This document shows, piece by piece, positions 10,301-23,392 of a stretch of DNA of 64,000 bases (positions are counted from its first letter, which is position 1; each line of letters begins with the position of its first letter). Location of the stretch: IMG/VR virus record IMGVR_UViG_3300021387_000147, one strand, 5' to 3'. Under the pieces are notes generated by a model. That model did no database searches. It was given only the letters and a program-made list of their open reading frames with translations, and had not been told where the DNA came from. The position numbers and the translations under genes were made by a program. The DNA is from a virus (taxonomy: Duplodnaviria; Caudoviricetes).

Positions 10301-12078
10301 CTACTTACATCTTCATCCCATCTTAAAACGTCTGCTGCAGATGCAATACTATTACCAGATAAAACTGCTGCAGAAGATGATACTTGATCTTCTGAAAATT
10401 GTCTATGAACTATATCATCTATATCTTGATGATATATGTTTTGCCAATTCCATAAATCAGTTCTTAAATCAATTAAAGGTGAATTTTCTGCTATATTTGA
10501 AGTTGCAGAAGACATAAAAATTGTACGAGAACATTTATCATCATCGTTTGGTGAAATATAAGAATTACATCCTACAATTTTACCACCTGCTGATTTACCT
10601 ACTAAACCACCACAGAAACCTACGAAAGTTCCTTCAAATACTGCTTTAGCTTTTGATTCACAATTTTGAATTGTACCTTTATTCCATCCACAGAATGGTG
10701 AAATATAATATGCAGAACGAGCAAATTGATGTAATTTAACAGGTTGATTTACCCAATTACATGTTCTTGTATGACATATTTGATGTGTATTTCTTAAACT
10801 TGTATTATCTTTATCTAAACAGTTATATCCAAAATGATCATCAAATACACTTGCATAACCTAATGATTTTGCTGTTTCTAATGTATTATTGTAATCCATT
10901 ATGAATTCATTACCATAACCATAAGCACTTGCAGGAATACCAGCAACAGGTGGTTTATCACCTCTATCACCAACTAATATAGTTCCATTCCAATCAGTAT
11001 TTTTATCATTTACTTCATCTAACCAAAAGTTTTTTGTTGTTTCACTACCAGATGTGACTGCTATAACACCTTCATTGAAATAACCAACATAAGGAATTAT
11101 ATTACCTGGTGAGTTAATACAGAAATAGTTAGGATAAAATTCATTATCTTTAGAACTTACAACTGGTTCATTTTGATTTTCAGTTTTATTTTGTACCATA
11201 TAAACTTGTGGTACAAATCCTTTAAATAATACTTTAGGTATATAATTTTGTGTTTTTTTAGATGTTGAAGAATAACGACATTCTTCAATTAAACCTTTAT
11301 TACATGCACAAATAGCACCAAAATATACATCGGTACCTTGATTCTTAATATGTGTTAAATTAATCTTCTTTGTACATTCTACTTCCATATCGCCAAAGAT
11401 ATTAACACCATATATTCTTCCAAAATGGCCTAAATAACCAACTATACCACCTACATCTTGTGATACATTGAAAATTAAATTTTGAAATACATAACCATTA
11501 CCAAATAATAAACCTTCAAATGGTCTATCTGGATAACGACCAATTACAAAATCAATTTTTGTTTTTGCATTTTCTTCGCCAATATCATCACCTAATACAA
11601 TGGCAATATGATTATTAAAATTGTCACCTCTTTCACCATCATCATTATCACCATTTACTCTATTAGCGCACCATTTTAATTCTTCTTTTGTTTTAATATA
11701 ATAGAAACCACCATAATTTGAAAAGATACCATTATTAAAAAAGATACCAGCTAAATCACGTTCGTTTGAATTATTTTTTATAAAATCAGAAAAATTATCT
11801 TGAGTAATATATGCAGGTTTATTTGAATACTTTACTTCTACTAACTTTGAATATGCATATTCAATTTTATAAAGTTCAGCAATATTTTTACTATAATCAC
11901 CATTTAAATATGTTTCAATAGATTGTTTAGTCTTAAACTGTTCAGGCTTGATATTCTCTCCAGATAGATTTTCAATAAAATCTTTCTTAACTGGCTGGAA
12001 GAACCACTTCGTGCCATTGTTTTCTACTTCACCGTTTAAGAATCTCTTTTTAAATTCGTTAAAAATAAATGAACTCAT
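7300..12078 (-). CDS. large putative virion appendage/fibre protein (1592 aa) with GLUG-like motifs
   Basis: Asn/Ser/Tyr-rich; VGGIVG, CGGLVG, VGGLIG, FGGLAA motifs; located in the neck-gene operon. Confidence 0.55.
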   Translation of the reverse strand: MSSFIFNEFKKRFLNGEVENNGTKWFFQPVKKDFIENLSGENIKPEQFKTKQSIETYLNGDYSKNIAELYKIEYAYSKLVEVKYSNKPAYITQDNFSDFIKNNSNERDLAGIFFNNGIFSNYGGFYYIKTKEELKWCANRVNGDNDDGERGDNFNNHIAIVLGDDIGEENAKTKIDFVIGRYPDRPFEGLLFGNGYVFQNLIFNVSQDVGGIVGYLGHFGRIYGVNIFGDMEVECTKKINLTHIKNQGTDVYFGAICACNKGLIEECRYSSTSKKTQNYIPKVLFKGFVPQVYMVQNKTENQNEPVVSSKDNEFYPNYFCINSPGNIIPYVGYFNEGVIAVTSGSETTKNFWLDEVNDKNTDWNGTILVGDRGDKPPVAGIPASAYGYGNEFIMDYNNTLETAKSLGYASVFDDHFGYNCLDKDNTSLRNTHQICHTRTCNWVNQPVKLHQFARSAYYISPFCGWNKGTIQNCESKAKAVFEGTFVGFCGGLVGKSAGGKIVGCNSYISPNDDDKCSRTIFMSSATSNIAENSPLIDLRTDLWNWQNIYHQDIDDIVHRQFSEDQVSSSAAVLSGNSIASAADVLRWDEDVSRVNHYHDNAGISQCPWHKSTQGIMLQFDGLSATSSYSKTVTYTFDSSVYNSNTSETSPGGNSALNIYNAAMKTGNYTSGAGYTLVEGNAIIGGVSKIHTRSRIHKDYYDQFTYDNNTKKVYDDNVPSAKSCWFPLVKKSEQDASVWTDFKYDPDTNCYVIKNAQFDLGCGYTILPNNYYLTSGNNDSKKFDNFIVDQVYPDFYDASNNYLVRTQKDSKYNHPIQTTGKSYLNNTWSATYNENYNVKIDRLNASKGNFTCGIEFDQNATFSDTFYDNSVDFVSAGTIVKPTITIDEIYLTPFTNDAKNENIKKFINNETEYIEGFPLAITKIKGVHIKNRYSHITPKTSNDTKTVITITDYELYIKDFGVYGTVYSRVNLNTQFPSISQSKISRDIIFYDWAYNYQRQGREPVFIGNCALPYNDIFDLNDDTYIDPFSSVKKPQYLLNVRVGAIGESFRTELQSIYNVGGLIGSMAFAPQVTEIYNTSAFLDNHISEGVIVSANPDKTATQYIFNNAKSKNYSFMNRFGGLAAICEFNTSNIGDDAPRPLVCNNVNLHYEEDSGVQKPWDKVDTSENSAYYAKRDFYGPIQLNGGASECPFGVGSPIVAEIKPTYNMFPGINSYINTWSGTNNKSDNASEAWGYCYYGNFSNDLGLMYNDFNLGINTLDLNVDTPIKNMNIDNNEGNADSTGYKYGWLPGMRKPNGDDLGGLPFLAQSLFRGINIKQNYYGYFQNNQFVQGPGYRRFANALSTVHYPAAICRDLSLNMSHIHVHRGTGKNNYDYYSDQYQTSKHESTYSYFGSDLKIYTDESGKKVDNDLYISYQDDWSVCSTNGPDLTNAKLPNYPLTLFKRNNEVDQYFTYTYSAISDINDNGEPAKLGEYSYNVKFAMADNGKIGYWLEDPIAGISGDNFVYNHNIMHLGLTKSPEQIRKEIMEKGICYTSAISGEDFAGLYVYDKDGNNVMYIDTSVGDCDGLSTWSMQLDSGKVDNKQMGCVLEIK

Positions 12079-12079
12079 A

Positions 12080-13699
12080 TTACCACTTTACTGCATAATC
12101 AGGTTTCTTTTCTTCTGTAATTTCTACAGCCACATCTTCTGTAGATAATGTCATACTTAGTTTATCTGATGTTGATTTATTTATCTGAGGATTTAATGTT
12201 TTATCTAATGATGTTTCATATAATGTTTGAATATCACCAGATGGTAATTCATCATTTGTATTTATATTATCACCGAACTTCAACCAATGTTGTGCACATG
12301 TTTTATTCAATCCATCGCCAAAGAATTCCTTACATATATCATTTAAGAAATTTACAGGTGCTGTATCAAAACCATTACCATGATCACCAAATAATTGCAT
12401 TACTCCACCATAAACTAACATAGTTGCTAATGCTAATTCACCTGTTGCTGTTCTAAATATACCAGGATTTCCAGTAGACATACCTTGTCTAACTGCTGCT
12501 CTATCTTTTGCAACTTCAAAAGATGATCGATCTAAATCTTCCCAATTTGCTGGATAATATGCATACAAAGGTTTACCAAGTCTTCTACATTGAAAACTTG
12601 TTTTATCATAGATAGAATAATTTTTATTTGATTCTAATATAATAGCATGTAAAATTGAAACTGGTGATTGATACCAAGATTCTCCTTTTAATGTTGCTTT
12701 TTGTGCTTTTGAATATACTGTCACATTTGGATCATAAGAAAAATACCATTGTGGATTTCCATATCCTGTTAAATCTTGTGCAGAATTATAATTATAAACA
12801 CCTCTATGTTTTGTTATATTACCATTAATACTCATTACTGTAGCAGTAATATAATTTTGCATAATAGCAACTTCTTTATATGCTCCATCCATTTGATATG
12901 AATTTAATGGTACAAATGCATCAACACCATTCCATACACATAATTGTAATGCAGTTTCACCTATATCTTTAAGATATGATAATTCATTATGTGGAACGAA
13001 ATGATTATTTTCCCAAACAACAGATGATCTATAACCAGGAGCAGACGTTGTTTCTTCAACACTATATAAACATGCAGATGATGAAAAATTTTTCATAGCT
13101 GTTGCTGCTATAAAATTTCCACTTGTCCATTTAGATGTATTAGATGTAATATAATCATAAACTGATTGTTTATAATCATTAATAAATTTCTTTTCATCAT
13201 TATATTCATGATATTCTGCTATATCACCAAATTTACCATCATTTGCAGTAAATGTATACTTAAAAGTATAATTATAATAACTTCCTGGACCAGAAGCAGC
13301 TCCACCAGAACCAGTTAATCTTACAGTCCATTGAATACCATCTATAGTTAATGGACATCCTGCCCATACTCTATATGTACACCAATTTTTTAATTCTTCA
13401 ACCCAAAAATATTTACTTTGTGTTGGATCTGATTTTTCTGTACTACCAATTTTTAAATAACCATTATCATTTGGACTACTACAATATTCTGTTTTATTTT
13501 GCCAATTATAAGGTTCTACATATTCACCATTAGCAATCTTTTCTGCTAATGTTTCTTTTACATCTTCTATTGTTTCACTATTATAAGAAACTTTATCTAA
13601 ACCAAAATCAATTACTTTACTACTATTATGAATACTATTCTGTGTAGTTATTGTTTGATTTCGTTTAGTAGCTTCAACTGTTTTAAAATATCCTATCAT
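12080..13699 (-). CDS. putative virion structural protein
   Basis: 539-aa ORF directly behind the late promoter TATAAATA. Confidence 0.5.
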   Translation of the reverse strand: MIGYFKTVEATKRNQTITTQNSIHNSSKVIDFGLDKVSYNSETIEDVKETLAEKIANGEYVEPYNWQNKTEYCSSPNDNGYLKIGSTEKSDPTQSKYFWVEELKNWCTYRVWAGCPLTIDGIQWTVRLTGSGGAASGPGSYYNYTFKYTFTANDGKFGDIAEYHEYNDEKKFINDYKQSVYDYITSNTSKWTSGNFIAATAMKNFSSSACLYSVEETTSAPGYRSSVVWENNHFVPHNELSYLKDIGETALQLCVWNGVDAFVPLNSYQMDGAYKEVAIMQNYITATVMSINGNITKHRGVYNYNSAQDLTGYGNPQWYFSYDPNVTVYSKAQKATLKGESWYQSPVSILHAIILESNKNYSIYDKTSFQCRRLGKPLYAYYPANWEDLDRSSFEVAKDRAAVRQGMSTGNPGIFRTATGELALATMLVYGGVMQLFGDHGNGFDTAPVNFLNDICKEFFGDGLNKTCAQHWLKFGDNINTNDELPSGDIQTLYETSLDKTLNPQINKSTSDKLSMTLSTEDVAVEITEEKKPDYAVKW

Positions 13700-13761: not shown

Positions 13762-14763
13762 TTATGCTATTTCAAAGAATCCTAATGGAGATTCCAATCT
13801 TATCTGTTCTCTACAATCATCCCATTCTTCTTTATAAGATGAATACAAAGAATCAGCATTCAAAGAACCACCGCCTGCAATTGATAAAGTATACTTACGC
13901 AATGCATTAGTCCATATCATACCTGCTCTTGCAACTACCATACGTCTAAAGATTACATCATTAAATAACTTACTTGACTTCTGTCTCTTGTATACTTCCA
14001 TCAATCCTCTTACAGGATGGTCAGGTTGAGGCCATACAGATAATTCCTTTTCTTTCTCATTATATCTTACGGTATATGATTCACCGAAATCCATCTTAGC
14101 CTGTTCCAACCATACAAGTGCAGCATTCCAATGACCTAGAACATCACCAAATCCACCAGCATTACTATAACAAGAACCTGTAAAGGAACTACCCATACTC
14201 ATTACTGTGTTATACAAAGCATTGTGTGGTAGAGTAAACAAATCATTGATTGTTCCCATCCAATCTGAAACTTGGAAATCTACAATAGACTCTAATTCAT
14301 CACAGATTTTATAGTGTGATTTTCCTGGTACTAAGTCCATAACAAGATAATCTCTATAATTACCTTCTCTGAAATAATACTTCCACATGTATTTAACTGT
14401 ATCAGCAATAATGAAATTCAATTGCTGATCTGAAATTTCAATACAAATTACTGGAGCACCTAACATCATCTTAATGTAGTTTCTCATTTGAGCTACATTC
14501 TGAATGTTCATCGCATCCATAAACTCATCCCTAACAGGAGGTTTAAATGGAGGATGTGGAGGTGCAGGTGGATGAGGTGGAATTATATCAGGTTTTGGTC
14601 CTGTTCCTGGCCATGGTCCATCTGCTGGAGGGAATGGTCCTCTTATTTCATTTCCTGGAAGCATACCATCCATTGGAGGATGCATTGGAAACATTCCACC
14701 TGGAGGTGGAGGAGGTTTTGGAAATGGTCCTTTCTTAGTAATTTCTTGTGTTATATTAGCCAT
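13762..14763 (-). CDS. neck protein (T4 gp13-like) with Pro-rich N-terminal extension
   Basis: YIKMMLGAPVICIEISDQQL, W...L.KY....AGG.SLN...LY. Confidence 0.85.
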   Translation of the reverse strand: MANITQEITKKGPFPKPPPPPGGMFPMHPPMDGMLPGNEIRGPFPPADGPWPGTGPKPDIIPPHPPAPPHPPFKPPVRDEFMDAMNIQNVAQMRNYIKMMLGAPVICIEISDQQLNFIIADTVKYMWKYYFREGNYRDYLVMDLVPGKSHYKICDELESIVDFQVSDWMGTINDLFTLPHNALYNTVMSMGSSFTGSCYSNAGGFGDVLGHWNAALVWLEQAKMDFGESYTVRYNEKEKELSVWPQPDHPVRGLMEVYKRQKSSKLFNDVIFRRMVVARAGMIWTNALRKYTLSIAGGGSLNADSLYSSYKEEWDDCREQIRLESPLGFFEIA

Positions 14764-14767
14764 ATAC

Positions 14768-14775
14768 TATTTATA
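14768..14775 (-). promoter_or_regulatory. T4-type late promoter
   Basis: TATAAATA, 4 nt upstream of ATG 14763. Confidence 0.75.
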
Positions 14776-14784
14776 ACACAAAAT

Positions 14785-14809
14785 AAAAAAGATGGTATTA
14801 ACCATCTTT
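14785..14809 (-). terminator. rho-independent terminator ending the early small-gene array
   Basis: AAAGATGGT/ACCATCTTT stem with T-run. Confidence 0.65.
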
Positions 14810-15164
14810 ATTTCTTTTTCTTAGGAGCTCTCTTCCTTTCTGTTGTAATTTTCTTTTGCAACTTCTCATTAGCCTCTTCCATACTCATTGTTTCTAAGGC
14901 TGATTTCTGTATAATTGCTTTAGGCTTATTCTTCTCAATATATTCTTTATCCTCATCATATTCTTGTGGAGTTTCAAATTTTCTCCAATAAGATACTCTG
15001 TAGATATTACCAATCTGTTGAGACATTGCTAAGAAATTCTTTTTACATTTCTCCTTAAATGCTTGTGCTTCCTTTTCTGTAGCAAACTCTCTATAAGTCG
15101 TATCCTCACGAGGGAATGCTAACCACTTTGGAGCATATTTGCTCACATATTCTTTATTTGCCAT
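14808..15164 (-). CDS. basic hypothetical protein
   Basis: 118-aa Lys-rich ORF, translationally coupled (TAATG). Confidence 0.65.
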   Translation of the reverse strand: MANKEYVSKYAPKWLAFPREDTTYREFATEKEAQAFKEKCKKNFLAMSQQIGNIYRVSYWRKFETPQEYDEDKEYIEKNKPKAIIQKSALETMSMEEANEKLQKKITTERKRAPKKKK

Positions 15165-15538
15165 TAGAACTTCTCCTTACAAATGTTTTGAATTTGTCTT
15201 CTTTTAATTTCAGCTTTCAATTTACGAATATAATCAACTATTGATTGTAAACGATTTACAAGCTTCTTAGGTTTTTTGTAATAATTATATCTATCGTCCA
15301 TCAAAATAAAATACTTCATAACTCCTTCAGCATTTCTTTTTTGAGCCATTTTAGGATGATATACCTTACATTCACCATTCGTTTGACATGAAGCAATTAA
15401 CTTATGACGTGCATTATCATTGTCAACATAAATTCCAATAGTCTCATCCCATGGAGCTATAGAAAAAGTAGTAAAACCAAACTTTTCTGCTATTTGTTTA
15501 AATTCCACTTGAGTCATGTATATGCTCCTGTAAAGCAA
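15164..15538 (-). CDS. array protein with shared C-terminal tag (soluble type)
   Basis: N-term FKQIAEKFGF; C-term KRRQIQNICKEKF; real start probably the second Met. Confidence 0.7.
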   Translation of the reverse strand: MLYRSIYMTQVEFKQIAEKFGFTTFSIAPWDETIGIYVDNDNARHKLIASCQTNGECKVYHPKMAQKRNAEGVMKYFILMDDRYNYYKKPKKLVNRLQSIVDYIRKLKAEIKRRQIQNICKEKF

Positions 15539-15986
15539 TATTCTTTATTTGTGCTTTCTTATAATATCTTGTTCTCTTCTTATATAAATCTTCCAAATGG
15601 TCGACCATACTTTTAAAGTTATGATATTGTCTTAATTTCAAATTCTTATAGAAAACATCATATCTCCACAGTTTATGTTTCTTATACCAATGATAAAATT
15701 CTTTATATGTTTTACAATATTTTTTATAAATAAGTATTTTAAAATCATCATCCTCTCTTATGTAGATATATGGAACACTATCAAAAGTTAGAGCAGTCTC
15801 AAAAAAATTAGAACTGATCATATCATCAACATGTGCTAAAGGACATAATTCTTCTAGCTTTAATTTAATTAGATATAAATCATGTTCATTAAAACTTGTT
15901 TCTTCTTTAATTCTATAATCACATTCAAGTCTTATAGCCCAAATAAAAACAAATACAGCAATAGGTAAAACAGCTATTATAAACAT
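15498..15986 (-). CDS. array protein with N-terminal TM helix and shared C-terminal tag
   Basis: Hydrophobic N-terminus; C-term KKAQIKNIALQE. Confidence 0.7.
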   Translation of the reverse strand: MFIIAVLPIAVFVFIWAIRLECDYRIKEETSFNEHDLYLIKLKLEELCPLAHVDDMISSNFFETALTFDSVPYIYIREDDDFKILIYKKYCKTYKEFYHWYKKHKLWRYDVFYKNLKLRQYHNFKSMVDHLEDLYKKRTRYYKKAQIKNIALQEHIHDSSGI

Positions 15987-16327
15987 TATTCATCTTGTCC
16001 TATTGATTTAATTAATCTTAATTTATATTGTTTCTTCCAAAATAATGTGTCTTTTTCAACTCTTTTCAAATGATTTTTAAGTGCTTCTTTTGAAGCCAAT
16101 GTTCTTCCATTACCTCTTGTACAAATGGCGCCCATACAATCTAAACGAATATCATAGCATCCACCTCTTTTAGTTTCAGCATCAAGCCATGCAATCAAAT
16201 TATCTGCAGCTCTTTCATTATTCAAATAGATAGCTACATAATTTGAATATTCACCATCTGTATCATAACCAAATTCTTTAGCTACTTCTATGAATTCTTC
16301 TTTAGTCAATTGTTTCGCCATCTGCAA
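15986..16327 (-). CDS. array protein with shared C-terminal tag (soluble type)
   Basis: FIEVAKEFGY; KLRLIKSIGQDE. Confidence 0.7.
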   Translation of the reverse strand: MQMAKQLTKEEFIEVAKEFGYDTDGEYSNYVAIYLNNERAADNLIAWLDAETKRGGCYDIRLDCMGAICTRGNGRTLASKEALKNHLKRVEKDTLFWKKQYKLRLIKSIGQDE

Positions 16328-16637
16328 TACTCTTAATTTGATTTAATTTTATAATACGTTTATAAATGTGTATTCTTTCTGTGACTTCATCAAGCCAATC
16401 AATAAATTCTTTTTGTGTCTTAACTACTTTTGAATTTTGTTCTGTCTCTATAAGATTGATAGCTCTATAAAATATTGGGTTATGTAATTCTACACCATAA
16501 GAACAACATATCGCTAAACACATTTCATTTGTATAAATGTTATCAATGTGTATACGATAATCTCCCATTGATTCTAATAAAGGATTTAATTCAAATCCAT
16601 ATTGTTTAGCTATATTTTTAAAATCTGAGGCTTTCAT
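16302..16637 (-). CDS. array protein with shared C-terminal tag (soluble type)
   Basis: FKNIAKQYGF; KLNQIKSIADGE. Confidence 0.7.
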   Translation of the reverse strand: MKASDFKNIAKQYGFELNPLLESMGDYRIHIDNIYTNEMCLAICCSYGVELHNPIFYRAINLIETEQNSKVVKTQKEFIDWLDEVTERIHIYKRIIKLNQIKSIADGETID

Positions 16638-17110
16638 ACATCTTCCTTACATATATTCTTAATAGCTTCAAGTTTCTTTAACTTATTAAGTTTAGTTTCA
16701 AATGTAGGAACTTGTTTAATAAATTCTTCTAATGTTCGAATACGTGCAAATTCTTTTTGCTTCCATAGTGGATATTCATCAACCTTAACAATAAAGAAAT
16801 ACTTATCTTTAGATTTATGATATTTTAACCATTCTTTATATGTTTTAAAATTGTTCTTGTATAACATACAAAAGAAACGAGTATCATTTAGTCCATAACC
16901 ATGATTTAATCTAGAAATTGTAAAATAATCTTTGCCTTTACAACTTACTTCTAAACCACATCTACGAATAGACCTATCAATCATTGCAACAATCTTTGTA
17001 CCTTCTTCATCACTAACAGTAATTGGCATTGACATTAAACGTAAGCGTCCTAAAAGATAACTTACATAAAAAATTGCCATAATACCAAATATAATTGCTA
17101 AAGGTTCCAT
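16634..17110 (-). CDS. array protein with N-terminal TM helix and shared C-terminal tag
   Basis: Hydrophobic N-terminus; KLEAIKNICKEDV. Confidence 0.7.
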   Translation of the reverse strand: MEPLAIIFGIMAIFYVSYLLGRLRLMSMPITVSDEEGTKIVAMIDRSIRRCGLEVSCKGKDYFTISRLNHGYGLNDTRFFCMLYKNNFKTYKEWLKYHKSKDKYFFIVKVDEYPLWKQKEFARIRTLEEFIKQVPTFETKLNKLKKLEAIKNICKEDV

Positions 17111-17595
17111 TAGTCTTCCTCTTTACAAATACTTTGAATTTTCATTAATTTTTCTTTTCTAACTGCAAGCTTCATTTGATTTGGTATATCATTAAACATT
17201 TGATAAAAATCATCATACTTAGCAACAGGATTCAAATATTGAAATGCTCTTGCTTCAAATACATACGATAAACTAAATCTCAAATCTGGCATTTTTCTTT
17301 TCTTTAAGAAATCAAAAAAACTTGTATAAGTCAATCTATCAAAAGTATAATATAATTTATCTTCAATATAAAACGCATCTTTATATATTGCAAAGTTCAT
17401 TTCATATCCATATTTAGTTTCTACTTTCTTTTTAATTGTATCAAAAAGAAATTTCCTTGTTTGTTGGTCAAAATATGGTAGCTCATCCTTAATAAGATTA
17501 TAATGAATTACTTGGTATATCATCCAAAGAACGCATAACGTTAATGCGGTCATCAAAATAAAAGCTACACCTATACCAATAATCGGAACTAACAT
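17110..17595 (-). CDS. array protein with N-terminal TM helix and shared C-terminal tag
   Basis: Hydrophobic N-terminus; KLMKIQSICKEED. Confidence 0.7.
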   Translation of the reverse strand: MLVPIIGIGVAFILMTALTLCVLWMIYQVIHYNLIKDELPYFDQQTRKFLFDTIKKKVETKYGYEMNFAIYKDAFYIEDKLYYTFDRLTYTSFFDFLKKRKMPDLRFSLSYVFEARAFQYLNPVAKYDDFYQMFNDIPNQMKLAVRKEKLMKIQSICKEED

Positions 17596-18062
17596 ATATC
17601 CTTTTCTTTACAAATACTTTCAATCAATAATTTCTTATAAATTTTCTTTCTATCTCTAATAAGTCTTGGAAATTCTTTTTCAAGCTTAAGAATATCAGTG
17701 TACACTTCAAATAATGTTTCATCAGGATATGGACCAGATATGTATTCATTATACGGCATATAAAAAACTGAATAGTAAATATTGGATTTATGCTTAAGAA
17801 AATGATCTTTAAAAGAGTAAGGGTTTTTCTTAAGATAAATAGCCATCTCACCAATTTCTACTTCCTTATAAGACCATCTACTATAGAATGGACCATATTT
17901 AACCATATTATACTTTTGATACAGTCCATGCATGTGCAAATAAAACCAATGCCATTCCTTTTCTGTAATATGATTTTTATCATCTTTATAATACTTCCAA
18001 ACCATACACAGTACACCGCATATAGCAAGAAAATATAATGGTGCAAGCATAACATTAATCAT
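17589..18062 (-). CDS. array protein with N-terminal TM helix and shared C-terminal tag
   Basis: Hydrophobic N-terminus; KKLLIESICKEKD. Confidence 0.7.
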   Translation of the reverse strand: MINVMLAPLYFLAICGVLCMVWKYYKDDKNHITEKEWHWFYLHMHGLYQKYNMVKYGPFYSRWSYKEVEIGEMAIYLKKNPYSFKDHFLKHKSNIYYSVFYMPYNEYISGPYPDETLFEVYTDILKLEKEFPRLIRDRKKIYKKLLIESICKEKDIC

Positions 18063-18408
18063 CTTTACAAATACTCTCTATTTGAAATTTCTTAATATCT
18101 TTCTTAATAAATTTTACCAATCTTAAATACAATTCTAAATTCTTTTCAAATTCAGATTCATCTTCAGAATCAAAATACGTTGAAGAGCAACCAGTATCAA
18201 TTGCTCCATTTGTATAAATTTCAATAGCATTCTTTAATTTAATCTGATTACAATTAGTGTTTAATTGCGTAATAACTCTATGATGATCTTCAGGTAAAGA
18301 AAAACAAATAAAATGTTTTCCACCAATAATCTGTTTACCAACTTCCTCTTCAGTCAGTTGTTCCAAACCATGTTTCTTACAGATCTCAATAAATTTTTCT
18401 TCACTCAT
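18055..18408 (-). CDS. array protein with shared C-terminal tag (soluble type)
   Basis: FIEICKKHGL; KKFQIESICKDD. Confidence 0.7.
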   Translation of the reverse strand: MSEEKFIEICKKHGLEQLTEEEVGKQIIGGKHFICFSLPEDHHRVITQLNTNCNQIKLKNAIEIYTNGAIDTGCSSTYFDSEDESEFEKNLELYLRLVKFIKKDIKKFQIESICKDD

Positions 18409-18833
18409 ACTGGATCCTTACAAATGTTTCTAATACGACGGAGCTTTTCAGTTATATTAAAAAGCTTAACTTCCTTTGTAATGCTTAACAATTCATCTTT
18501 CAAAATTGCAGGGTCAGTAACAGTAATTCCATTTATTGCAGTTGACAAATAACATTGACCATCGTAATTAACAATTTTTATTTTGTTATAGAGAACACAT
18601 TCGAATAAAGCATTTCTTAAATGCTTTTTATTATAATCAATAGTGAAGACAATTACAATATTTGCTTCAGATGCAGTAGTATATGTCGGTGTATTTAAAG
18701 AAACTACATACTTTTTGCTTAAACTTTTAGTAGTGTCACATTTATCAAAAAGATCTGGCTCATAACCACATTCATGACAAATGTTCAAAAACTTTTCTTC
18801 ATTTAATGTATCTTCTTTAACGTGAGAAAACAT
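18405..18833 (-). CDS. array protein with shared C-terminal tag (soluble type)
   Basis: FLNICHECGY; KLRRIRNICKDPV. Confidence 0.7.
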   Translation of the reverse strand: MFSHVKEDTLNEEKFLNICHECGYEPDLFDKCDTTKSLSKKYVVSLNTPTYTTASEANIVIVFTIDYNKKHLRNALFECVLYNKIKIVNYDGQCYLSTAINGITVTDPAILKDELLSITKEVKLFNITEKLRRIRNICKDPV

Positions 18834-18834
18834 A

Positions 18835-19554
18835 TTATTCCTTACAAATGTGTTTAATTTCGTAGAGCTTTCTTAAGCGAGCAAACTTCTGTTGTAATTC
18901 ATTATTCTTTTGAATTTGCTTTTCAATTTCTTCGTATGCCTTCTTAAATCCATCTACATTCAAACAGTTATCAGTAAACTTAACTGGATATTCTGCGATA
19001 TATTCCTTTGTTGTAGGAAATGCTATTTGATATGCATATTTTTCATTACCTTCATAGAAATAAAGAATACGCAATTTCTGCAAAGTCAGTGTCAATGTAT
19101 GCACAACTTTGTTTGTATACTTTCTTGTCACTGCATCTTTAACAGTTTCAATCGCAGACGTATACTTGATAAATGGATGCTGTGCTTGATGAGCCCAAGG
19201 TTCATTACAATAATGATAAATGAAAGATGTGCCATCACAATTATGATTGAAAAAACTATTGCGCCATAAATCTTCAAGCGTATACTTTTCAAGATAATCA
19301 TCATCTTTAAGTGCATCCATCATGTTAATAGTATATTTCTTTTGAATACCCATAAATGCACCATTTGACCAATTAGCACAGATCTTATTTTCACTTGGAT
19401 GTGCAGTAGAACGTGCCAACTCAGTTCGCACATAAATCTTCAAACATTCAATCATCGCTTGTTTCAATGCATCAGTCATATTCTTTCTATCCTCAATATC
19501 TTGCACAACCTTATTAAACTGTTCAGATACTGACTTCATAAGCAATTCTGTCAT
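18835..19554 (-). CDS. array protein with shared C-terminal tag
   Basis: 239 aa; KLYEIKHICKE. Confidence 0.7.
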   Translation of the reverse strand: MTELLMKSVSEQFNKVVQDIEDRKNMTDALKQAMIECLKIYVRTELARSTAHPSENKICANWSNGAFMGIQKKYTINMMDALKDDDYLEKYTLEDLWRNSFFNHNCDGTSFIYHYCNEPWAHQAQHPFIKYTSAIETVKDAVTRKYTNKVVHTLTLTLQKLRILYFYEGNEKYAYQIAFPTTKEYIAEYPVKFTDNCLNVDGFKKAYEEIEKQIQKNNELQQKFARLRKLYEIKHICKE

Positions 19555-20108
19555 TAATCTTCATCCTTTCCAATAGAATGGATGGCGGCATATTTTGCAT
19601 TTCGAACAGAAGCCTTAATCATTGCTTCATTCTTTTCCTGCGTATCTCGAATTAAATCAACTGCCAACTTCCAATCTTCAAAATCTACTTTCTTAGAAAA
19701 ATCAAAATCATATCTTTCACGATAACCACCACATGCAAGCTGAACAGGAAGTTTCTTTTCATCTACATACTGATAAATGAAATTGGGAACCATCATTGTC
19801 AAAGAAATTTGCCATGGATGCCAATTCTGTCCACTTGCTCTCCAAACACTGCAAGTAATATCCTTATAAGTATACAAATTCCAATAAGTATTATCAGCAA
19901 TTTCTAAATAATAGGCTTTGCGGATTTTTTCGAACTTTTTAATAGGGTCGAAAATCACGTGATAGTCATGATGAAAATCACCATTCAAAATCAGCTTTTC
20001 TTCAGACGCTTCATAACGGTCGATAATATACAACTGTTTGGAATGCTCCTTAGACAAATACTGGAGCATATCCACGATTTTCATTTGAGCATCCCATTCG
20101 TTATACAT
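19554..20108 (-). CDS. array protein with shared C-terminal tag
   Basis: 184 aa; KYAAIHSIGKDED. Confidence 0.7.
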   Translation of the reverse strand: MYNEWDAQMKIVDMLQYLSKEHSKQLYIIDRYEASEEKLILNGDFHHDYHVIFDPIKKFEKIRKAYYLEIADNTYWNLYTYKDITCSVWRASGQNWHPWQISLTMMVPNFIYQYVDEKKLPVQLACGGYRERYDFDFSKKVDFEDWKLAVDLIRDTQEKNEAMIKASVRNAKYAAIHSIGKDED

Positions 20109-20278
20109 TATTCAACTTCTCTTCCGTCAATTTCAGTGTCAGCCAAGAAAGAACCAAACTTCTTGATAATCTTCTGACGATTTTCCTCGGCCTTAGCCTT
20201 GTCATGATACACGCCCCAAATCATACGGCGTTCGGGCTTGTCCATAGTGTTATAAGTCAAAACATATACCTTTTCCAT
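20108..20278 (-). CDS. small hypothetical protein (56 aa, below ORF-track cutoff)
   Basis: GAGGT SD; MEKVYVLTY...IWGVYHDKAKAEE, a common small phage-protein pattern; coupled to next gene by TAATG. Confidence 0.65.
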   Translation of the reverse strand: MEKVYVLTYNTMDKPERRMIWGVYHDKAKAEENRQKIIKKFGSFLADTEIDGREVE

Positions 20279-20292
20279 AATTTACCTCTTAA

Positions 20293-20478
20293 TTATTCAG
20301 CAGGCCAAATTGCTTCAATGTGATTAATTCCTACGACAATGGTCGTTCCACTAATTCGCAAATCTTTACAATTAACGAATTTTACGAAATGTTCATCCAT
20401 GGCTTCAATAGTACCGGTAAAACGAGCACCCATGTTAAACTTGCCATGCAACCAGTATCTTTTTCCAATTTCAAGCAT
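20293..20478 (-). CDS. small beta-barrel-like hypothetical protein
   Basis: 61 aa, first gene after an early promoter, GAGGT SD. Confidence 0.65.
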   Translation of the reverse strand: MLEIGKRYWLHGKFNMGARFTGTIEAMDEHFVKFVNCKDLRISGTTIVVGINHIEAIWPAE

Positions 20479-20480
20479 CT

Positions 20481-20593
20481 TAACCTCTTTTATTTTAACA
20501 AGTAAAATATACTAAAAAAGAGGTTTCTTGGAAACCCCTTTTAATGTAAAATAAAGTTTACAGAACTATAAAATATGTAAATTATAGTTTACT
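20481..20593 (-). promoter_or_regulatory. early promoter cassette copy 1 with palindromic boxes
   Basis: GGGTTTCCA-N17-TATATT; boxes TGTAAA-N6-TTTAC at 20545-20562 and 20576-20593. Confidence 0.75.
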
Positions 20594-21017
20594 TAAGCAA
20601 CGTTTTTCCTTCCTTCATGCGCTGTTCATACAACTTTCCAAATTCCTCAGCGCTATCCGGAATGTCTTCGTCTTCCATATTCATATTAAACAATTCCCAT
20701 TGATCACGCGGGAAAGACTCCTTATCGGCTTCAATCTTCGCAAGCGTCATAGAATTTACTTCATCAAGCTGATTATATTCATCATTTGGATTAATATCAT
20801 CATAGCTGATTTCAAATGGAACATTAGTTTCCGTATAGAATGAGGCCTTAATAAGCGGCGTATTCTTATCCTTCAGTTCCTCAATAATTTCTTTCTTGAT
20901 TTGCTGGAACGTTGCTTCATCAGGAACGTCCTTATATTCATATCGAGTTTCGTCACCACCTACACAAGCAGAGCGACCCTTTCCATTGACAGCGAGAGTA
21001 TAAATTACCTTAACCAT
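20589..21017 (-). CDS. hypothetical protein
   Basis: 142-aa acidic ORF with AAGGA SD. Confidence 0.65.
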   Translation of the reverse strand: MVKVIYTLAVNGKGRSACVGGDETRYEYKDVPDEATFQQIKKEIIEELKDKNTPLIKASFYTETNVPFEISYDDINPNDEYNQLDEVNSMTLAKIEADKESFPRDQWELFNMNMEDEDIPDSAEEFGKLYEQRMKEGKTLLK

Positions 21018-21228
21018 GTCTTATTCCTTTTTTGTATTGTTTCCAAGTTGGATGTTTATCTTGATGTGTTAAATGAAAATTCTGACAGAGCTGACAAAAA
21101 TAAACATTCTTCTCATGTCGATTATTATTTCCATTTAACTGATTAATTCTTTGACAGCGATATAATGCAAACTCTGCATCTATCTTTGTCTTATAACAAA
21201 TTTTTCCAGAAGGGCATTCAGTCATCAA
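21010..21228 (-). CDS. small Zn-binding phage protein
   Basis: CPSGKICY...A...YFCQLCQNFHLT motif. Confidence 0.65.
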   Translation of the reverse strand: MMTECPSGKICYKTKIDAEFALYRCQRINQLNGNNNRHEKNVYFCQLCQNFHLTHQDKHPTWKQYKKGIRHG

Positions 21229-21674
21229 TCCCCCTTTACAGCCAAAGTTAAAAGTTCAAATTTCTTTTTGTATTTCTTGTTTGTTTCTTCTTCCTCATGA
21301 ATTCGTTGAGCCATCTTACGGAACTTTTCCTTAGTACTTTCCCATGCAGCGACAGAATATGTACCATCTTCCGTAATTGTTTCCACATTATCTAACTTGA
21401 AACAAAGGTATTTCTTTTTGTCCTCTTCCTCAAGCGCAAAATGGCCAGACGTTCCAAACTTGATGCAATACGGATAAGTTAATTCACCATGCTTATAGGC
21501 GAAATACATACGTATCTGCCAATATTTGTCTTCCTTACTGAAAGAATAATCTCTCTTTAATTTGTCTTTACTAATGGATTCATCCATGCTGAATTCCTTA
21601 ATCATATCGATAAAGTCATCAACAATGGTAAGCCAACTTACGCGTTGAAAACGCTTCTTAAAATTTTCAAACAT
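21225..21674 (-). CDS. hypothetical protein
   Basis: 149-aa ORF in a coupled operon. Confidence 0.65.
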   Translation of the reverse strand: MFENFKKRFQRVSWLTIVDDFIDMIKEFSMDESISKDKLKRDYSFSKEDKYWQIRMYFAYKHGELTYPYCIKFGTSGHFALEEEDKKKYLCFKLDNVETITEDGTYSVAAWESTKEKFRKMAQRIHEEEETNKKYKKKFELLTLAVKGD

Positions 21675-21949
21675 TACTCGTCACCTCTTAGACGAAGCTG
21701 GATGCAGTGACAAGTTAACCAATCAAAATCACCAACACCAATCTTCTGCACAAAACCATCAACAATCTTCTGAGTACGGACTTCATCATCGTCATTTTCA
21801 AGAATAGTCACAAATGGATATTTCGTAGTGGAAAGAATTTCAGTCACTTCCTTCTCAACCTTTTCATCATTTGCACAGACAATAATGCCAGGAACCTGAG
21901 GTTCAGTGGGATAATACTTGAGCATTTCTTTGAACTGATACATTTGCAT
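21674..21949 (-). CDS. hypothetical protein
   Basis: 91-aa ORF, AGGAG SD. Confidence 0.65.
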   Translation of the reverse strand: MQMYQFKEMLKYYPTEPQVPGIIVCANDEKVEKEVTEILSTTKYPFVTILENDDDEVRTQKIVDGFVQKIGVGDFDWLTCHCIQLRLRGDE

Positions 21950-21963
21950 AATAAAGTCTCCTA

Positions 21964-22200
21964 TTAAAGATGGAAGTTAAACCAAGCCTTAAGCTGATCA
22001 AAATCTTTGTATTCGAGAGTGCAGTCATTCAAGTTAGTCTTAAACTTGAGTGCAAACATTGCACCATTCTTCTGAGTTTCCGGATATTCAACAAATTCCT
22101 CAATCTTGCAGAAAGTACGGTGACCCTTGCGAGGATGGCCATAAGCCTTGTTATAAGCAGCGATGCAGTTAGAAATATGAAGTGCTTTATCACCAGTCAT
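21964..22200 (-). CDS. hypothetical protein
   Basis: 78-aa ORF, AAGGAG SD. Confidence 0.65.
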   Translation of the reverse strand: MTGDKALHISNCIAAYNKAYGHPRKGHRTFCKIEEFVEYPETQKNGAMFALKFKTNLNDCTLEYKDFDQLKAWFNFHL

Positions 22201-22210
22201 TGTAAACTCC

Positions 22211-22369
22211 TTAGAACATTAAAGATGTGATGCTATCAGCAGCGATTACGCCGAGGATAAGAACTACGCCAAGGAAGTATTCGCCAAACTGCTTAATTTT
22301 AGCAACCTTAGCCTTATGCTGATAATAAGCAGTCCAGTTTTCAAATCCTTTAGGCATTATTTCGTTCAT
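22211..22369 (-). CDS. small membrane protein (52 aa, below ORF-track cutoff)
   Basis: MNEIMPKGFENW...YFLGVVLILGVIAADSITSLMF; first gene after early promoter, GAGGT SD. Confidence 0.65.
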   Translation of the reverse strand: MNEIMPKGFENWTAYYQHKAKVAKIKQFGEYFLGVVLILGVIAADSITSLMF

Positions 22370-22371
22370 CT

Positions 22372-22502
22372 TTAACCTCTTTTATTTTAACAAGTAAAAT
22401 ATAAGTATATTTGGATTCTTTGGAAACCCTGTTTTTCGTAAAATAATGTTTACAAAAGGCCTTGGAATGTAAACATTTTGTTTACGTAAACTAAAATTTA
22501 CA
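22372..22502 (-). promoter_or_regulatory. early promoter cassette copy 2 with palindromic boxes
   Basis: GGGTTTCCA-N17-TATATT; leader identical to copy 1; boxes at 22437-22454, 22468-22486 and 22485-22502. Confidence 0.75.
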
Positions 22503-22567
22503 TAAAATGATGCCATGGAGCGCATCCAGGGCATTCTTTTCCAGGGCTATTTAGTTGTTCGGCTAAT

Positions 22568-22593
22568 AAAAAAGAGCGCTTCTGGAGCGCTCT
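22568..22593 (-). terminator. rho-independent terminator
   Basis: AGAGCGCT/AGCGCTCT stem plus T-run on the minus strand, separating late genes from the early cassette. Confidence 0.7.
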
Positions 22594-22616
22594 AAAATAG
22601 CTTATTTTATGACTTT

Positions 22617-23042
22617 TTAGTCTTCATTACATATTTTATAAATCTTATTGGCAAGAGCTACATTTGTCATATCTACTGGGCCTCTAAAACTTTCACCATT
22701 TATTTCCAACCATTGAATATATGGAGCTCCTGATAGTTTTTCATATAGATTACTTGTACTAAAAGTAATTTCAATTTTATTTTTATCAATATTACCTTTA
22801 ACTATAACACGCCAATCTACTGTTGCTTTTCCAGTAGCTTTTATATTAGTCATATTTAAAGTTTCAGCACAGAAATTCTTAATGTATTCTTTAATCTTTT
22901 TATCTGTTGAATTTGCTGGTCTATCGTAATCTATATCTGGTGCACCACACATACTTGATGAAGAACCATAACAACCTTCATTCAATTGGTGAATTACATA
23001 ACCATGTTCAATTAATTCTTTTTTAGCTTCTAGTAAATTCAT
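22617..23042 (-). CDS. putative internal head protein
   Basis: N-term MNLLEAKKELIEHGY...LNE, shared with 25649-26728 and 47533-47796. Confidence 0.5.
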   Translation of the reverse strand: MNLLEAKKELIEHGYVIHQLNEGCYGSSSSMCGAPDIDYDRPANSTDKKIKEYIKNFCAETLNMTNIKATGKATVDWRVIVKGNIDKNKIEITFSTSNLYEKLSGAPYIQWLEINGESFRGPVDMTNVALANKIYKICNED

Positions 23043-23392
23043 GCTTCTGTCTCCTTGAGATATTTATACGAATTAGCATATTCTTCTTCAAATATCCATT
23101 CCTTTTCTTTCTTCTTAAAGGCATTTCTTATTTTATGTTTTTCAGTCTCCTTAATTTCAATATACTCTCTCAAAGATAGGTGTCTATAGCAATACTTTAG
23201 ACACATTCTCATTTTAATTAAAAGAAGATGACACAAATGGTGTTCTTTAGGAGTTAATTCTACTTTGTTTGTTTTCTTATTACTTCCACCTTCTGAACGT
23301 GGTATAATATGATGATTTTCTATATAAGTTCCGTATAATACTCTTGTTTGTCCTCTTCTAATCAGTTTATCATAGATTGCCTGATAATTCAA
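23039..23392 (-). CDS. HNH endonuclease-like protein
   Basis: MNY..IY..LI, ENHHIIPRSEGGSN...N.VELTPKEHHLCH. Confidence 0.8.
   Translation of the reverse strand: MNYQAIYDKLIRRGQTRVLYGTYIENHHIIPRSEGGSNKKTNKVELTPKEHHLCHLLLIKMRMCLKYCYRHLSLREYIEIKETEKHKIRNAFKKKEKEWIFEEEYANSYKYLKETEA

Follow-up and report, generated by a model that had tools for sequence, protein, structure and literature searches.

An array of eleven small phage genes with a shared C-terminal tag, and whole-gene indels with breakpoints in the tag codons of related phages

The window analysed here, a stretch of 64,000 nucleotides, comes from a T4-type myovirus of about 300 kb whose habitat is ruminant guts. It was found that eleven ORFs on the minus strand (15164-20108) are all translationally coupled and that every one of them bears a C-terminal tag. 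The eleven ORFs and C-terminal strings listed in a sequence-only reading of this DNA were all recovered. That reading had bounded the block by a promoter cassette and a terminator. The terminator agrees with a motif scan (14788-14809), but three untagged operon genes had been overlooked: two small ones on the upstream side, at 20293-20478 and 20108-20278, and downstream a conserved gene of 118 amino acids (14808-15164). The gene order of the operon is p61-p56-[11 array genes]-p118. Two start codons were also revised in line with the gene calls of relatives; the most likely start of gene 1 is ATG 15517 (MTQVEF...) instead of TTG 15538, and that of gene 3 is ATG 16321 (MAKQL...) instead of TTG 16327. 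The features are listed below, where S, T and L are paralog classes.

20481-20593, minus: putative promoter and stem-loop cassette, intergenic, PeSL-like, at the operon head; G+C-rich stem-loop, then a T run
20293-20478, minus: p61, ORF, first operon gene, 61 aa, untagged
20108-20278, minus: p56, 56 aa, untagged; stop overlaps the gene 11 start (TAATG)
19554-20108, minus: gene 11, class L, 184 aa; tag KYAAIHSIGKD at 19563-19595
18835-19554, minus: gene 10, class L, 239 aa (214 aa in some relatives); tag KLYEIKHICKE at 18838-18870
18405-18833, minus: gene 9, class S, 142 aa; tag KLRRIRNICKD at 18414-18446
18055-18408, minus: gene 8, class S, 117 aa; tag KKFQIESICKD at 18061-18093
17589-18062, minus: gene 7, class T (N-terminal membrane anchor), 157 aa; tag KKLLIESICKE at 17604-17636
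17110-17595, minus: gene 6, class T, 161 aa; tag KLMKIQSICKE at 17119-17151
16634-17110, minus: gene 5, class T, 158 aa; tag KLEAIKNICKE at 16643-16675
16302-16637, minus: gene 4, class S, 111 aa; tag KLNQIKSIADG at 16317-16349
15986-16321, minus: gene 3, class S, 111 aa, from ATG 16321; tag KLRLIKSIGQD at 15992-16024
15498-15986, minus: gene 2, class T, 162 aa; tag KKAQIKNIALQ at 15528-15560, then a 9-residue tail overlapping gene 1
15164-15517, minus: gene 1, class S, 117 aa, from ATG 15517; tag KRRQIQNICKE at 15173-15205
14808-15164, minus: p118, ORF, last operon gene, 118 aa, basic, conserved, untagged
14788-14809, minus: intrinsic-terminator-like hairpin and T run at the operon end (motif scan)
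14768-14775, minus: T4-type late promoter TATAAATA, preceding a gp13-like neck gene (13762-14763)

The consensus K-x3-I-x-[SNH]-I is present in 11 of 11 tags and is mostly followed by [CGA]-K-[ED]. I scanned the last 22 amino acids of stop-to-stop ORFs for the core K...I.[SNH]I and compared the counts with those of 200 codon shuffles. The window has 12 occurrences, of which the array holds 11, while the shuffles have a mean of 0.9 and a maximum of 4; the full motif was observed 9 times against 0.005 expected from codon shuffles of the window. At tightly coupled gene junctions, the strict core was found in 11 of 12 cases in the block and in 0 of 39 in the rest of the window, so it is not a general feature of C-termini overlapping a Shine-Dalgarno (SD) sequence. 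The tag had been described as following a basic amphipathic helix. The preceding 18 residues are indeed strongly basic (net charge +3 to +7), while they are only weakly amphipathic (hydrophobic moment 0.03-0.41).

The translational coupling of the array ORFs is real, as their stop and start codons meet in TAATG, in ATGA or in overlaps of 7-20 nt. The terminal tag codons TGT AAG GAR are the SD sequence of the following gene, with AGGAG or AAGGA located 7-9 nt ahead of the next ATG. Thus, every member is coupled to the next. In gene 4, the K-S codons within the core of the tag contain the SD sequence of the following gene (AAGAG). This double use had been raised as a caveat for the CKE ending, and it was borne out. 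Is the whole motif then kept only as RNA or DNA, for a ribosome-binding context, a coupling hairpin or a recombination site, with the peptide incidental? The enrichment of AAG for Lys at position 10 (5 of 8; 39% in the genome) and of GAG for Glu at position 11 (2 of 5; 7% in the genome) would fit such a signal in the [CGA]-K-[ED] codons, and so would the indel breakpoints in ATTTGTAA described below. However, the spacing between a tag and the start codon that follows is variable (28-43 nt), no common RNA structure was predicted at the 11 junctions (z-scores from -2.2 to +0.9), and the motif is missing at the 39 other coupled junctions.

The codons of the core also argue against this reading. 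The choice at K1, I5 and I8 follows genome usage, with AAA in six and AAG in five Lys codons (K1) and with ATT, ATA and ATC for Ile at genome-wide frequencies, and Ser is encoded by AGT, TCA and TCT. Among orthologs, with non-independent alleles pooled, pN/pS is 0.17 in the tag core (pS 0.149) and 0.38 in the gene bodies (pS 0.123); synonymous change is normal and pN is about half that of the bodies. Among paralog tags, third-position identity is 0.43 versus 0.38 in the preceding 33 nt, while first- and second-position identities are 0.59 and 0.66 versus 0.34 and 0.36. Conservation at the DNA level only was not borne out, and a nucleic-acid-only reading of the K-x3-I-x2-I core is largely refuted by these synonymous-site and codon data; I regard it as very improbable. 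The comparisons clearly indicate that the core is conserved at the protein level, by purifying selection on its amino acids, and that the tag is a functional part of the proteins.

The bodies had been thought to be variable effector or sensor domains. They are not a set of unrelated domains but fall into three paralog classes, namely S (n=5, small and soluble), T (n=4, with an N-terminal membrane anchor) and L (n=2, larger), with an identity of 16-26% within a class. The claim of little overall similarity therefore fails within classes, but it stands between classes, where profile-profile alignments reach only the last 27-35 residues, all in one basic C-terminal helix. A short C-terminal peptide is thus common to proteins with differing bodies. 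The class T proteins have transmembrane-like segments at residues 4-22 (gene 7), 5-23 (gene 6), 3-21 (gene 5) and 2-20 (gene 2). Their bodies are predicted to be cytoplasmic, and the tag is predicted on the cytoplasmic side for soluble and membrane-anchored members alike.

Structure models were made for classes S and L only. The S architecture is an alpha helix, four strands and a long C-terminal alpha helix; in the AF2 model of gene 3 (pLDDT 87.5; helices 7-16 and 78-107), the tag is the end of a 30-residue C-terminal helix. The L architecture is a beta-sheet with a long alpha helix, and the AF2 model of gene 10 (the 214-aa form, start 19479) has a confident C-terminal half with five strands and a 37-residue C-terminal helix. 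The S and L models have more than 20 of their top 50 structural neighbours in common. A significant fold match was found for none of the modelled S or L proteins, and the similarity between the S model and an immunity protein (7zhm_D, Z 5.9) stays below significance. Since the two classes share the sheet, the long helix and overlapping neighbour lists, the tag seems, in these models, to be the end of an ancestral helix that has been retained best, and not a grafted module.

What might the conserved peptide do? It may act purely as a tag for docking or targeting, like a portable address through which varied bodies plug into one host or phage hub, with recombination as a by-product. The alignment of the last 27-35 residues alone, the stronger selection on the tag than on the bodies and its predicted cytoplasmic location in both soluble and anchored members are consistent with this. 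So are an invariant Lys one turn ahead of the I-x2-I stripe with a small residue after it, a natural chimera (P0249) of the gene 3 body with the gene 2 C-terminal helix, and the precedent of T4 internal proteins, whose diverse bodies have only a targeting peptide in common (PMC3012670). On the other hand, a docking partner was not found, no ORF outside the array in the 64-kb window was seen to carry the tag, the family set is missing from the next related clade, and the common architecture of S and L speaks for an ancestral tag. I consider a pure docking tag possible, if somewhat doubtful.

Alternatively, K, I and I may be contacts of the helix with its own beta-sheet, that is, the part of a single diverged fold family that evolves most slowly, with no shared partner. 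The proteins are paralog families, the tag-bearing helix is integral and confidently modelled in S and L, and L85, a helix residue upstream of the tag, is likewise invariant within S. However, the model confidence drops across the tag (block means of 77 then 55 in S; 57 at the L end). The helix end probably overhangs, since a helix of 30-37 residues exceeds the short S strands, and in comparisons across classes the tag is much better conserved than the remainder of the helix. A structural remnant seems doubtful to me. Most likely, the tag would be an exposed helix end with a common contact surface.

Relatives of the phage have arrays of 4, 6, 9 or 11 members with the same flanks on either side. 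Gene 11 was found in all arrays examined, and p56 is 96-100% identical across all relatives; p61 is 93-100% identical and missing in L004, and p118 is 95-100% identical and deleted in L032. For at least five independent indels, one breakpoint lies within the tag codons (ATTTGTAA), and the frame and the coupling are kept, while a junction alone leaves the direction (loss or gain) unreadable. One junction joins the gene 6 body to the gene 1 tail with a crossover in ATTTGTAA, and another joins the gene 9 body to the gene 7 tail with a crossover in AGTATTTGTAA. Further tag-codon junctions join gene 10 to the gene 7 tail, gene 9 to the gene 8 tail, and the gene 2 start to the gene 1 tag; the gene 9 body in relatives carries the gene 7 or gene 8 tail after deletions. 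The gene 1 tag and tail (KF, then stop) form the right-hand breakpoint in two independent deletions. Gene 8 is missing from the 9-, 6- and 4-member arrays, and gene 6 with the gene 1 tail is the last gene of the 4-member arrays. The residues after I-C-K (tails) move with the downstream gene. The microhomology at the junctions is 8-11 bp, and the words common to tags are 8-16 nt. The role of the tag codons as breakpoints for in-frame gain or loss of whole genes in related phages had been overlooked by the earlier reader.

Single cassettes were also exchanged for alleles of 52-73% identity (pS up to 0.58) between flanks of 95-100% identity, and DNA identity returns at the tags. In L010, L012 and L016, a 72%-identical allele of gene 7 was swapped in among near-identical neighbours, and the gene 8 allele of L004 is only 55% identical (pS 0.58). 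Tag-site deletions or indels and allele swaps are thus evident from the sequences of natural relatives. No recent duplication was seen in their arrays, where only contractions and allele swaps were observed; gene gain may follow the same tag-microhomology route, and expansion of such an "accordion" would be its outcome. Pseudogenes or relics occur in L027, L028 and L032, and pN/pS is 0.2-0.7 for array genes versus 0.01-0.15 for gp13.

These arrays bear on the possibility that the tags pair mutually and that the coupled products build a membrane-anchored hetero-complex. The tight translational coupling of all members, the membrane anchors of four of them and the minimal 4-member array, which keeps L, L, S and T, would suit such a complex, as would the I-x2-I-small spacing, which is typical for helix-helix packing. 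However, arrays of 4, 6, 9 and 11 members persist and members decay to pseudogenes, which argues against a fixed stoichiometry, and the hydrophobic moment of the tag region is low. An oligomerisation element is unlikely.

Sigma-70-like hexamers (TTTCCA-17-TATATT, 20534-20506) lie inside the 20481-20593 cassette, which may therefore function as a promoter. The octamer TATAAATA stands before many structural genes of the window, and the motif scan found none on the minus strand from 14776 to 23060. The terminator separates the operon from the late gp13-like gene, whose orthologs are annotated as PF26809 Phage_T4_gp13. Judging from these motif scans, the operon would not be transcribed from a late promoter, and its timing would be early or middle. 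In contigs from four sheep-gut RNA-library runs, the match ends at 20480-20483 and other sequence follows, which points to a strain-variable junction. Since the contigs over the block also span late genes, they do not prove its transcription. Might the tag instead send the proteins into the capsid for injection, like the N-terminal sequence of T4 internal proteins? That precedent (PMC3012670), the hypervariable locus of diverse small proteins with one peptide in a T4-type phage, and the adjoining structural genes would favour it. However, the tag is C-terminal without a protease-site context, four members have an N-terminal membrane anchor, TATAAATA is absent within and before the operon, and the terminator stands between the operon and gp13. 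A virion-packaging signal is highly unlikely.

When 1.84 billion representatives were searched exhaustively with profiles, only 16 matches were obtained, all in the same phage clade, and the array families are restricted to this clade. The array proteins had no match in Pfam, PHROGs or PADLOC. For p61 and p118 no family match was found, and p56 has a weak, sub-threshold match to DUF7336.

Taken together, it is fairly probable that the block is a clade-specific, hyperplastic accessory "cassette accordion", in which the tag has three jobs and the products are probably host-directed. The 11 genes would be old tandem paralogs with three body classes and one retained basic C-terminal helix, whose end, K-x3-I-x2-I-[CGA]-K-[ED], serves three purposes at once. 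First, the helix end is a functional piece of protein kept by purifying selection on its amino acids. Second, its last codons provide the SD sequence of the next cistron and couple each member to the next. Third, the 8-16-nt words common to tags offer microhomology to the phage recombination system, so that whole genes are removed or swapped, and may also be added, with frame, ribosome-binding site and coupling intact. The array proteins are probably host-directed accessory factors for anti-defence, exclusion or takeover, because of their timing, dispensability, fast evolution and mosaicism.

Similar principles are known from other systems. The T4 internal proteins (IPI-III and relatives) have a conserved capsid-targeting sequence and a known role against host defence (PMC3012670). 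They resemble the array in that polymorphic loci of T-even-type phages encode diverse small proteins with only a peptide of about 10 residues conserved. In contrast, their targeting sequence sits at the N-terminus, where the prohead protease cleaves it, and its action is late, while the present tag is C-terminal in an operon without a late promoter and with four membrane-anchored members; they have no sequence similarity to the array proteins. In polymorphic toxin loci, cassettes are exchanged at conserved peptide-coding motifs such as the CdiA and Rhs pre-toxin motifs (Zhang et al. 2012, PMC3482391). As in these loci and in integron cassettes, a short conserved coding motif serves as the recombination point for in-frame module swaps among tandem alternative cassettes. 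However, the present locus has no toxin, immunity or integrase gene, and one large protein with toxin-immunity pairs swaps its C-terminal tip in toxin loci, whereas here the cassettes are whole small genes with the conserved motif at their C-terminus.

Recombination at microhomology of 6-10 bp is established in T4 for the "gene accordion" of tifA (Srikant et al. 2022, PMC9391042), where the copy number of accessory host-directed genes changes in a similar manner (8-11 bp here). The T4 case involves identical tandem repeats, laboratory selection and arbitrary microhomologies, whereas the units here are paralogs of old divergence (16-26% identity) with a conserved in-frame motif as their microhomology, and the arrays showed contractions and allele swaps only. 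Modular shuffling at repeated linkers is established for hyperplastic regions of T4-type phages (Arbiol et al. 2010, PMC2839356), and PeSL-mediated shuffling was also described in these phages by Comeau et al. 2014 (PMC4122927). As in the present locus, a plastic block of small orphan genes lies between conserved T4-type core genes, a short linker is repeated beside each gene, and linker recombination among close relatives deletes, inserts or replaces whole genes with expression unharmed. A PeSL-like promoter and stem-loop even heads the present operon. In contrast to the intergenic promoter-terminator cassette of that system, the genes of this array have no promoters of their own and form a single coupled operon, and the linker is coding, consisting of the last codons of a protein and the next SD sequence, and is also selected as protein.

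The eleven coupled ORFs described in the sequence-only reading were confirmed: they lie head to tail on the minus strand, from 20108 down to 15164, with gene 11 first in the array and gene 1 last. Two starts were corrected to those called in relatives, most likely ATG 15517 for gene 1 and ATG 16321 for gene 3. The C-terminal strings reported earlier are exact in all eleven products. After the core of this shared tag, K-x3-I-x-[SNH]-I, most products have [CGA]-K-[ED] and then 0-9 more residues. The ORFs are joined by a TAATG or ATGA overlap, by a 1-nt gap, or by an overlap of 7-20 nt. Thus, as in a translationally coupled operon, each stop abuts or overlaps the next start, and the Shine-Dalgarno (SD) sequence lies within the upstream ORF. 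The tag motif is far beyond chance. A scan of the last 22 residues of all six-frame ORFs of the window gave 12 hits for the core, all but one in the array, against a codon-shuffle mean of 0.9, and the full motif was observed nine times in the window where 0.005 was expected. Nor is it a general property of coupled C-termini, since the core is found at 11 of the 12 junctions of the block and at none of the 39 other tightly coupled junctions in the window.

The array is a set of tandem paralogs in an operon without a late promoter. Its borders are marked by the following features.

20481-20593, upstream of the operon: stem-loop with sigma-70-like hexamers, found by motif scan
20293-20478, minus strand: p61, untagged operon member upstream of the array
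20108-20278, minus strand: p56, untagged operon member upstream of the array
14808-15164, minus strand: p118, conserved basic 118-aa protein, untagged operon member downstream of the array
14788-14809, between the block and gp13: terminator-like hairpin
14768-14775, minus strand: T4 late-promoter octamer TATAAATA, preceding gp13

An octamer scan found no TATAAATA on the coding strand from 14776 to 23060. Since there is also a terminator before gp13 and a promoter-like cassette upstream, the transcription unit is taken to comprise p61, p56, the 11 genes, and p118. Judged from these signals, the operon is probably an early or middle unit; the missing late promoter and the terminator before gp13 argue against late expression. 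Contigs from RNA libraries of sheep gut span the array, but they span late genes too, and they are no evidence for transcription, operon ends, or timing. Promoter-like sites were not enriched (42 found, 49.5 expected). It was also found that the part of the window upstream of 20483 is matched by contigs from four sheep-gut RNA-library runs, which continue into several different, unrelated sequences beyond 20480-20483. Therefore, the promoter/stem-loop cassette at the operon head is itself a strain-variable recombination junction. One relative, L004, has no p61.

As for the late octamer, TATAAATA starts at 5247, 13704, 14768, 23061, 31935, 35815, 43453, 46506, and 47817 on the minus strand and at 36745, 37318, 37811, and 38308 on the plus strand. 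It lies immediately upstream of many structural genes, although the window total (22 versus 15 expected) is itself not significant. This placement suggests that a gp55-type late transcription system has been kept in this very distant T4 relative.

The window comes from a far-diverged T4-type myovirus. The capsid protein, about 33% identical to the gp23 of T4-type cyanophages, gave the sole match in GenBank phage searches; the portal and tail proteins match PHROGs, and the gene immediately downstream of the block encodes a neck protein like gp13, with PF26809 recorded for its orthologs. A metagenome contig of 299,371 bp, NODE_17_length_299371 of ERZ12302816, is 100% identical across the locus. 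The runs that contain the stretch are mostly animal-gut metagenomes, sheep chief among them. Several observations concern the neighbouring genes. In the gp13-like protein (13762-14763, minus strand), some 80 residues rich in Pro, Gly, and Met (…PFPKPPPPPGGMFPMHPPMDGMLPG…) extend the N-terminus beyond the PHROG and Pfam match, and the relatives differ in length here (317-347 aa). Directly after gp13, a 1592-aa protein (7300-12078, minus strand) and a 539-aa protein (12080-13699, minus strand) are kept in all relatives. Neither has a PHROG or Pfam match at E <=1e-5, and both probably belong to the neck, tail, or fibres. Upstream of the operon, a 72-aa ORF with two Cys pairs (CPSGKIC … CQLCQNFH; 21010-21228, minus strand) looks like a small zinc-ribbon protein. 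It is coupled to the adjacent genes and matches no family.

Is the tag maintained as a peptide or as nucleic acid? Conservation of the DNA alone, which the sequence-only reading had named as a refuting outcome, fits the end of the string. By their sequence, the three codons after the core serve the following gene as its SD: AAG and GAG are over-used in them, and AAGGA or AGGAG lies 7-9 nt ahead of each ATG. The next start follows the tag at a distance that varies from 28 to 43 nt, and RNA folding of the 11 junctions revealed no common or unusually stable structure. Within the core, on the other hand, synonymous codons vary. The invariant Lys is AAA in six genes and AAG in five, the two Ile positions use ATT, ATA, and ATC at genome-wide proportions, and the Ser codons are AGT, TCA, and TCT. 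Among the 11 paralog tags, identity at first and second positions is 0.59 and 0.66, versus 0.34 and 0.36 in the preceding 33 nt, while at third positions it is 0.43 versus 0.38. In orthologs from about 25 loci, which include non-independent alleles, pS is 0.149 and pN/pS 0.17 over the eight core codons, versus 0.123 and 0.38 over the gene bodies. Codon usage and pN/pS together thus place the C-terminal peptide under selection at the amino-acid level, with its last codons overlapping the next SD.

The sequence-only reading had seen little overall similarity among the ORFs; instead, three paralog classes were found. Class S (genes 1, 3, 4, 8, and 9) consists of soluble proteins of 111-142 aa with 19-26% identity and a common N-terminal F-x2-[IV]-[AC]-K-x2-G. 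A Nif11-like N-terminal motif in this class scored 18.5 bits, under the cut-off, and was set aside. Class T (genes 2, 5, 6, and 7; 157-162 aa) has a hydrophobic segment at residues 2-23, followed by basic residues in three of the four, and its members are predicted to be N-out, C-in membrane anchors. Class L comprises the larger genes 10 and 11, 26% identical to each other, and relatives have a third L subgroup. Within the classes, the array paralogs are 16-26% identical. Between classes, profile-profile alignment is limited to the last 27-35 residues, with probabilities of 77-91%.

The AlphaFold2 model of gene 3 (34 homologs; pLDDT 87.5) has a helix at 7-16, four strands, and a helix at 78-107. 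The tag forms the C-terminal end of this 30-residue helix, where confidence drops. In the gene 10 model, confidence is limited to the C-terminal half, where five strands are accompanied by a 37-residue helix whose end is the tag. The sequence-only reading had a basic amphipathic helix before each tag. The segment around the tag carries a strong positive charge (+3 to +7 over 18 residues), but the hydrophobic moment is low, and a membrane-binding amphipathic helix was set aside for that reason. The weak structural neighbours of the S and L models largely coincide: type III secretion class I chaperones, the Med17 C-terminal domain, frataxin/CyaY, YbjN-like proteins, and the TriTu immunity protein. 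VIA-align against the PDB reached Z <=5.9 for S and <=6.2 for L, with many type III secretion chaperones, all within the background of Z <8. Foldseek returned nothing at E <=0.001 in the PDB or BFVD for either model; taken together, the fold searches in the PDB, BFVD, and ESM Atlas gave sub-threshold neighbours or unannotated viral clusters only, and ESM Atlas feature searches gave no usable lead. Since the weak neighbours are shared and none is significant, S and L probably have one common fold, of no recognised family, as far as the models tell. When all members and flanks were scanned, every Pfam match was under the curated cut-offs, PHROGs gave one weak match (E 0.003, below threshold), and PADLOC gave none. 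The cytoplasmic part of gene 5 co-folded with gene 3 scored 0.02, a value that carries no weight on binding either way.

Metagenomic relatives of the three families number in the hundreds, and all fall in one phage clade. When 1.84 billion cluster representatives were searched exhaustively with a profile of the S alignment, only 16 proteins were recovered, namely the five paralog groups and their fragments. A search of related phages for the array, as the sequence-only reading had proposed, yielded about 30 loci in which p56 flanks the array at one end and p118 with gp13 at the other; these arrays have 11, 9, 6, or 4 members. The array was unmatched among GenBank phages by megablast and tblastn, and neither the T profile nor p118 retrieved a relative from IMG/VR. 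In a search that had no positive control, S, T, and L were all unmatched in the next related clade, whose gp13 is about 69% identical and which includes a 411-kb record with an estimated completeness of 98%. A degenerate pattern for the tag DNA gave 79 single matches and no arrays in IMG/VR, two of them at real ORF ends. One 28.6-kb IMG/VR contig (L104), apparently a fragment of an unrelated phage with a GC content of 34%, encodes a 99-aa protein ending in RKILKIKNICKEEIDE (2321-2620, minus strand). In this protein, the tag alone aligns to the S profile (hhalign probability 24%); it is a lead and no established relative, and could be a chance match or a distant tag carrier. A 4-member locus (L001 / L017) lies in GCA_033813855.1 on the contig JAPZCB010000009.1 of 493,984 bp, possibly a mis-binned or concatenated phage; the contig of the window has 299 kb and the related IMG/VR record 411 kb. 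One ortholog carries the NCBI label Succinivibrionaceae. A literature search found no publication on this array or phage clade.

The main new finding is the natural junctions in these relatives, where in-frame indels and allele swaps have their breakpoints in tag codons. The breakpoint lies in the tag in five indels or more. The 4-member arrays have a gene 6 body that continues as the gene 1 tail (…KIQSICKE/KF), the parent switching at ATTTGTAA (8 bp). In the 9-member arrays, the tail of gene 7 is found on gene 9, with the crossover within AGTATTTGTAA (11 bp). In both cases, each parent is identical to the junction on its own side. In locus L030, the tail of gene 7 is on gene 10 and the gene 1 tag follows directly on the gene 2 start, and L032 has the tail of gene 8 on gene 9. 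Because the junction tails match the downstream parent, the residues after I-C-K belong to the downstream cassette. Exact words common to the tags are 5-16 nt long, and this falls in the range used by T4 recombination (6-10 bp; PMC9391042). Single cassettes have also been swapped for diverged alleles between near-identical neighbours, with DNA identity recovering at the tags. The gene 7 allele is 72% identical in L010, L012, and L016; in L004, genes 8 and 4 are 52-55% identical with a pS of 0.54-0.58, and gp13 is 98% identical with a pS of 0.09.

Other events occurred at other short homologies and left a relic ORF, gene 3/gene 1 hybrids, a chimera, truncations, and split genes. Decay products lie at L027:5880-5930, L027:7230-7380, L028:12872-13057, and L032:2548-2664. 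In this set, a relic ORF of 18 codons, the start of gene 8 fused to the tag of gene 7, continues to bridge a pair of genes; gene 6 has been split into two; a gene 3/gene 1 hybrid contains a stop; a gene 2 copy lacks its membrane anchor; and one deletion takes p118 along with most of gene 1. Two metagenome proteins (the P0249/P0002 pair) are in-frame natural chimeras. In one, the body of gene 3 ends in the C-terminal helix and tag from gene 2; in the other, the first 10 residues of gene 3 lead into gene 1, joined at the shared N-terminal motif. The array genes have a pN/pS of 0.2-0.7, versus 0.01-0.15 for gp13. No near-identical duplicate was found among the roughly 30 loci. The array members are dispensable, turn over fast, and are limited to the one clade.

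Three new orphan protein families make up this phage plasticity device; they are now defined, with a confident model of a new small fold, in one clade of ruminant-gut phages of about 300 kb. The sequence-only reading, a modular system of variable domains with a common docking helix, is partly supported: its observation stands and the shared peptide is selected, but the bodies form paralog classes. The tag end of the helix may be an exposed contact surface, either for a common partner or for mutual contact. The array may have grown by the same tag-recombination route, and its products would act on the host early in infection, in anti-defence, exclusion, or takeover. If the tag does dock to one partner, it would be a handle to fish for that partner and to identify the whole host-directed panel at once. 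A far-reaching and rather improbable reading is an integron-like system of in-frame cassettes. The 11-codon element would then have three roles: a docking peptide that brings a changing host-directed panel, soluble and membrane-anchored, to a single hub, a ribosome-binding site that couples the cassettes, and a recombination linker; co-infecting phages would trade or drop cassettes with frame and expression unbroken.

T4-type phages keep their host-adaptation genes in hyperplastic regions, and the known shuffling device is an intergenic promoter-terminator cassette. The closest known mechanism is the modular shuffling mediated by such promoter/stem-loop (PeSL) elements in T4-type hyperplastic regions (PMC2839356). 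As there, recombination at a linker gives insertion, deletion, and replacement of whole ORFs among close relatives. However, a sigma-70-like promoter and stem-loop do not flank each ORF here and are found at the operon head only (20481-20593); within the array, the overlap of stops with starts leaves no intergenic space, and the linker is coding sequence in a coupled operon. At the protein level, the closest analogy is the internal-protein locus of T-even phages, which is polymorphic and whose members share only the capsid-targeting sequence (PMC3012670). That sequence is N-terminal, cleaved by the prohead protease, and late-acting, whereas here the conserved peptide is in the last 11-20 residues and the N-termini are class-specific. 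T4 also recombines at microhomologies of 6-10 bp, with segmental amplification and deletion (PMC9391042). The present loci lack the recent, identical tandem copies of that process, but their junctions likewise keep one copy of a short word present at both parental sites (ATTTGTAA and AGTATTTGTAA). Thus, the locus is a different solution, in which the linker lies within the coding sequence and is constrained as peptide, Shine-Dalgarno sequence, and microhomology, and its use is documented by natural junctions.
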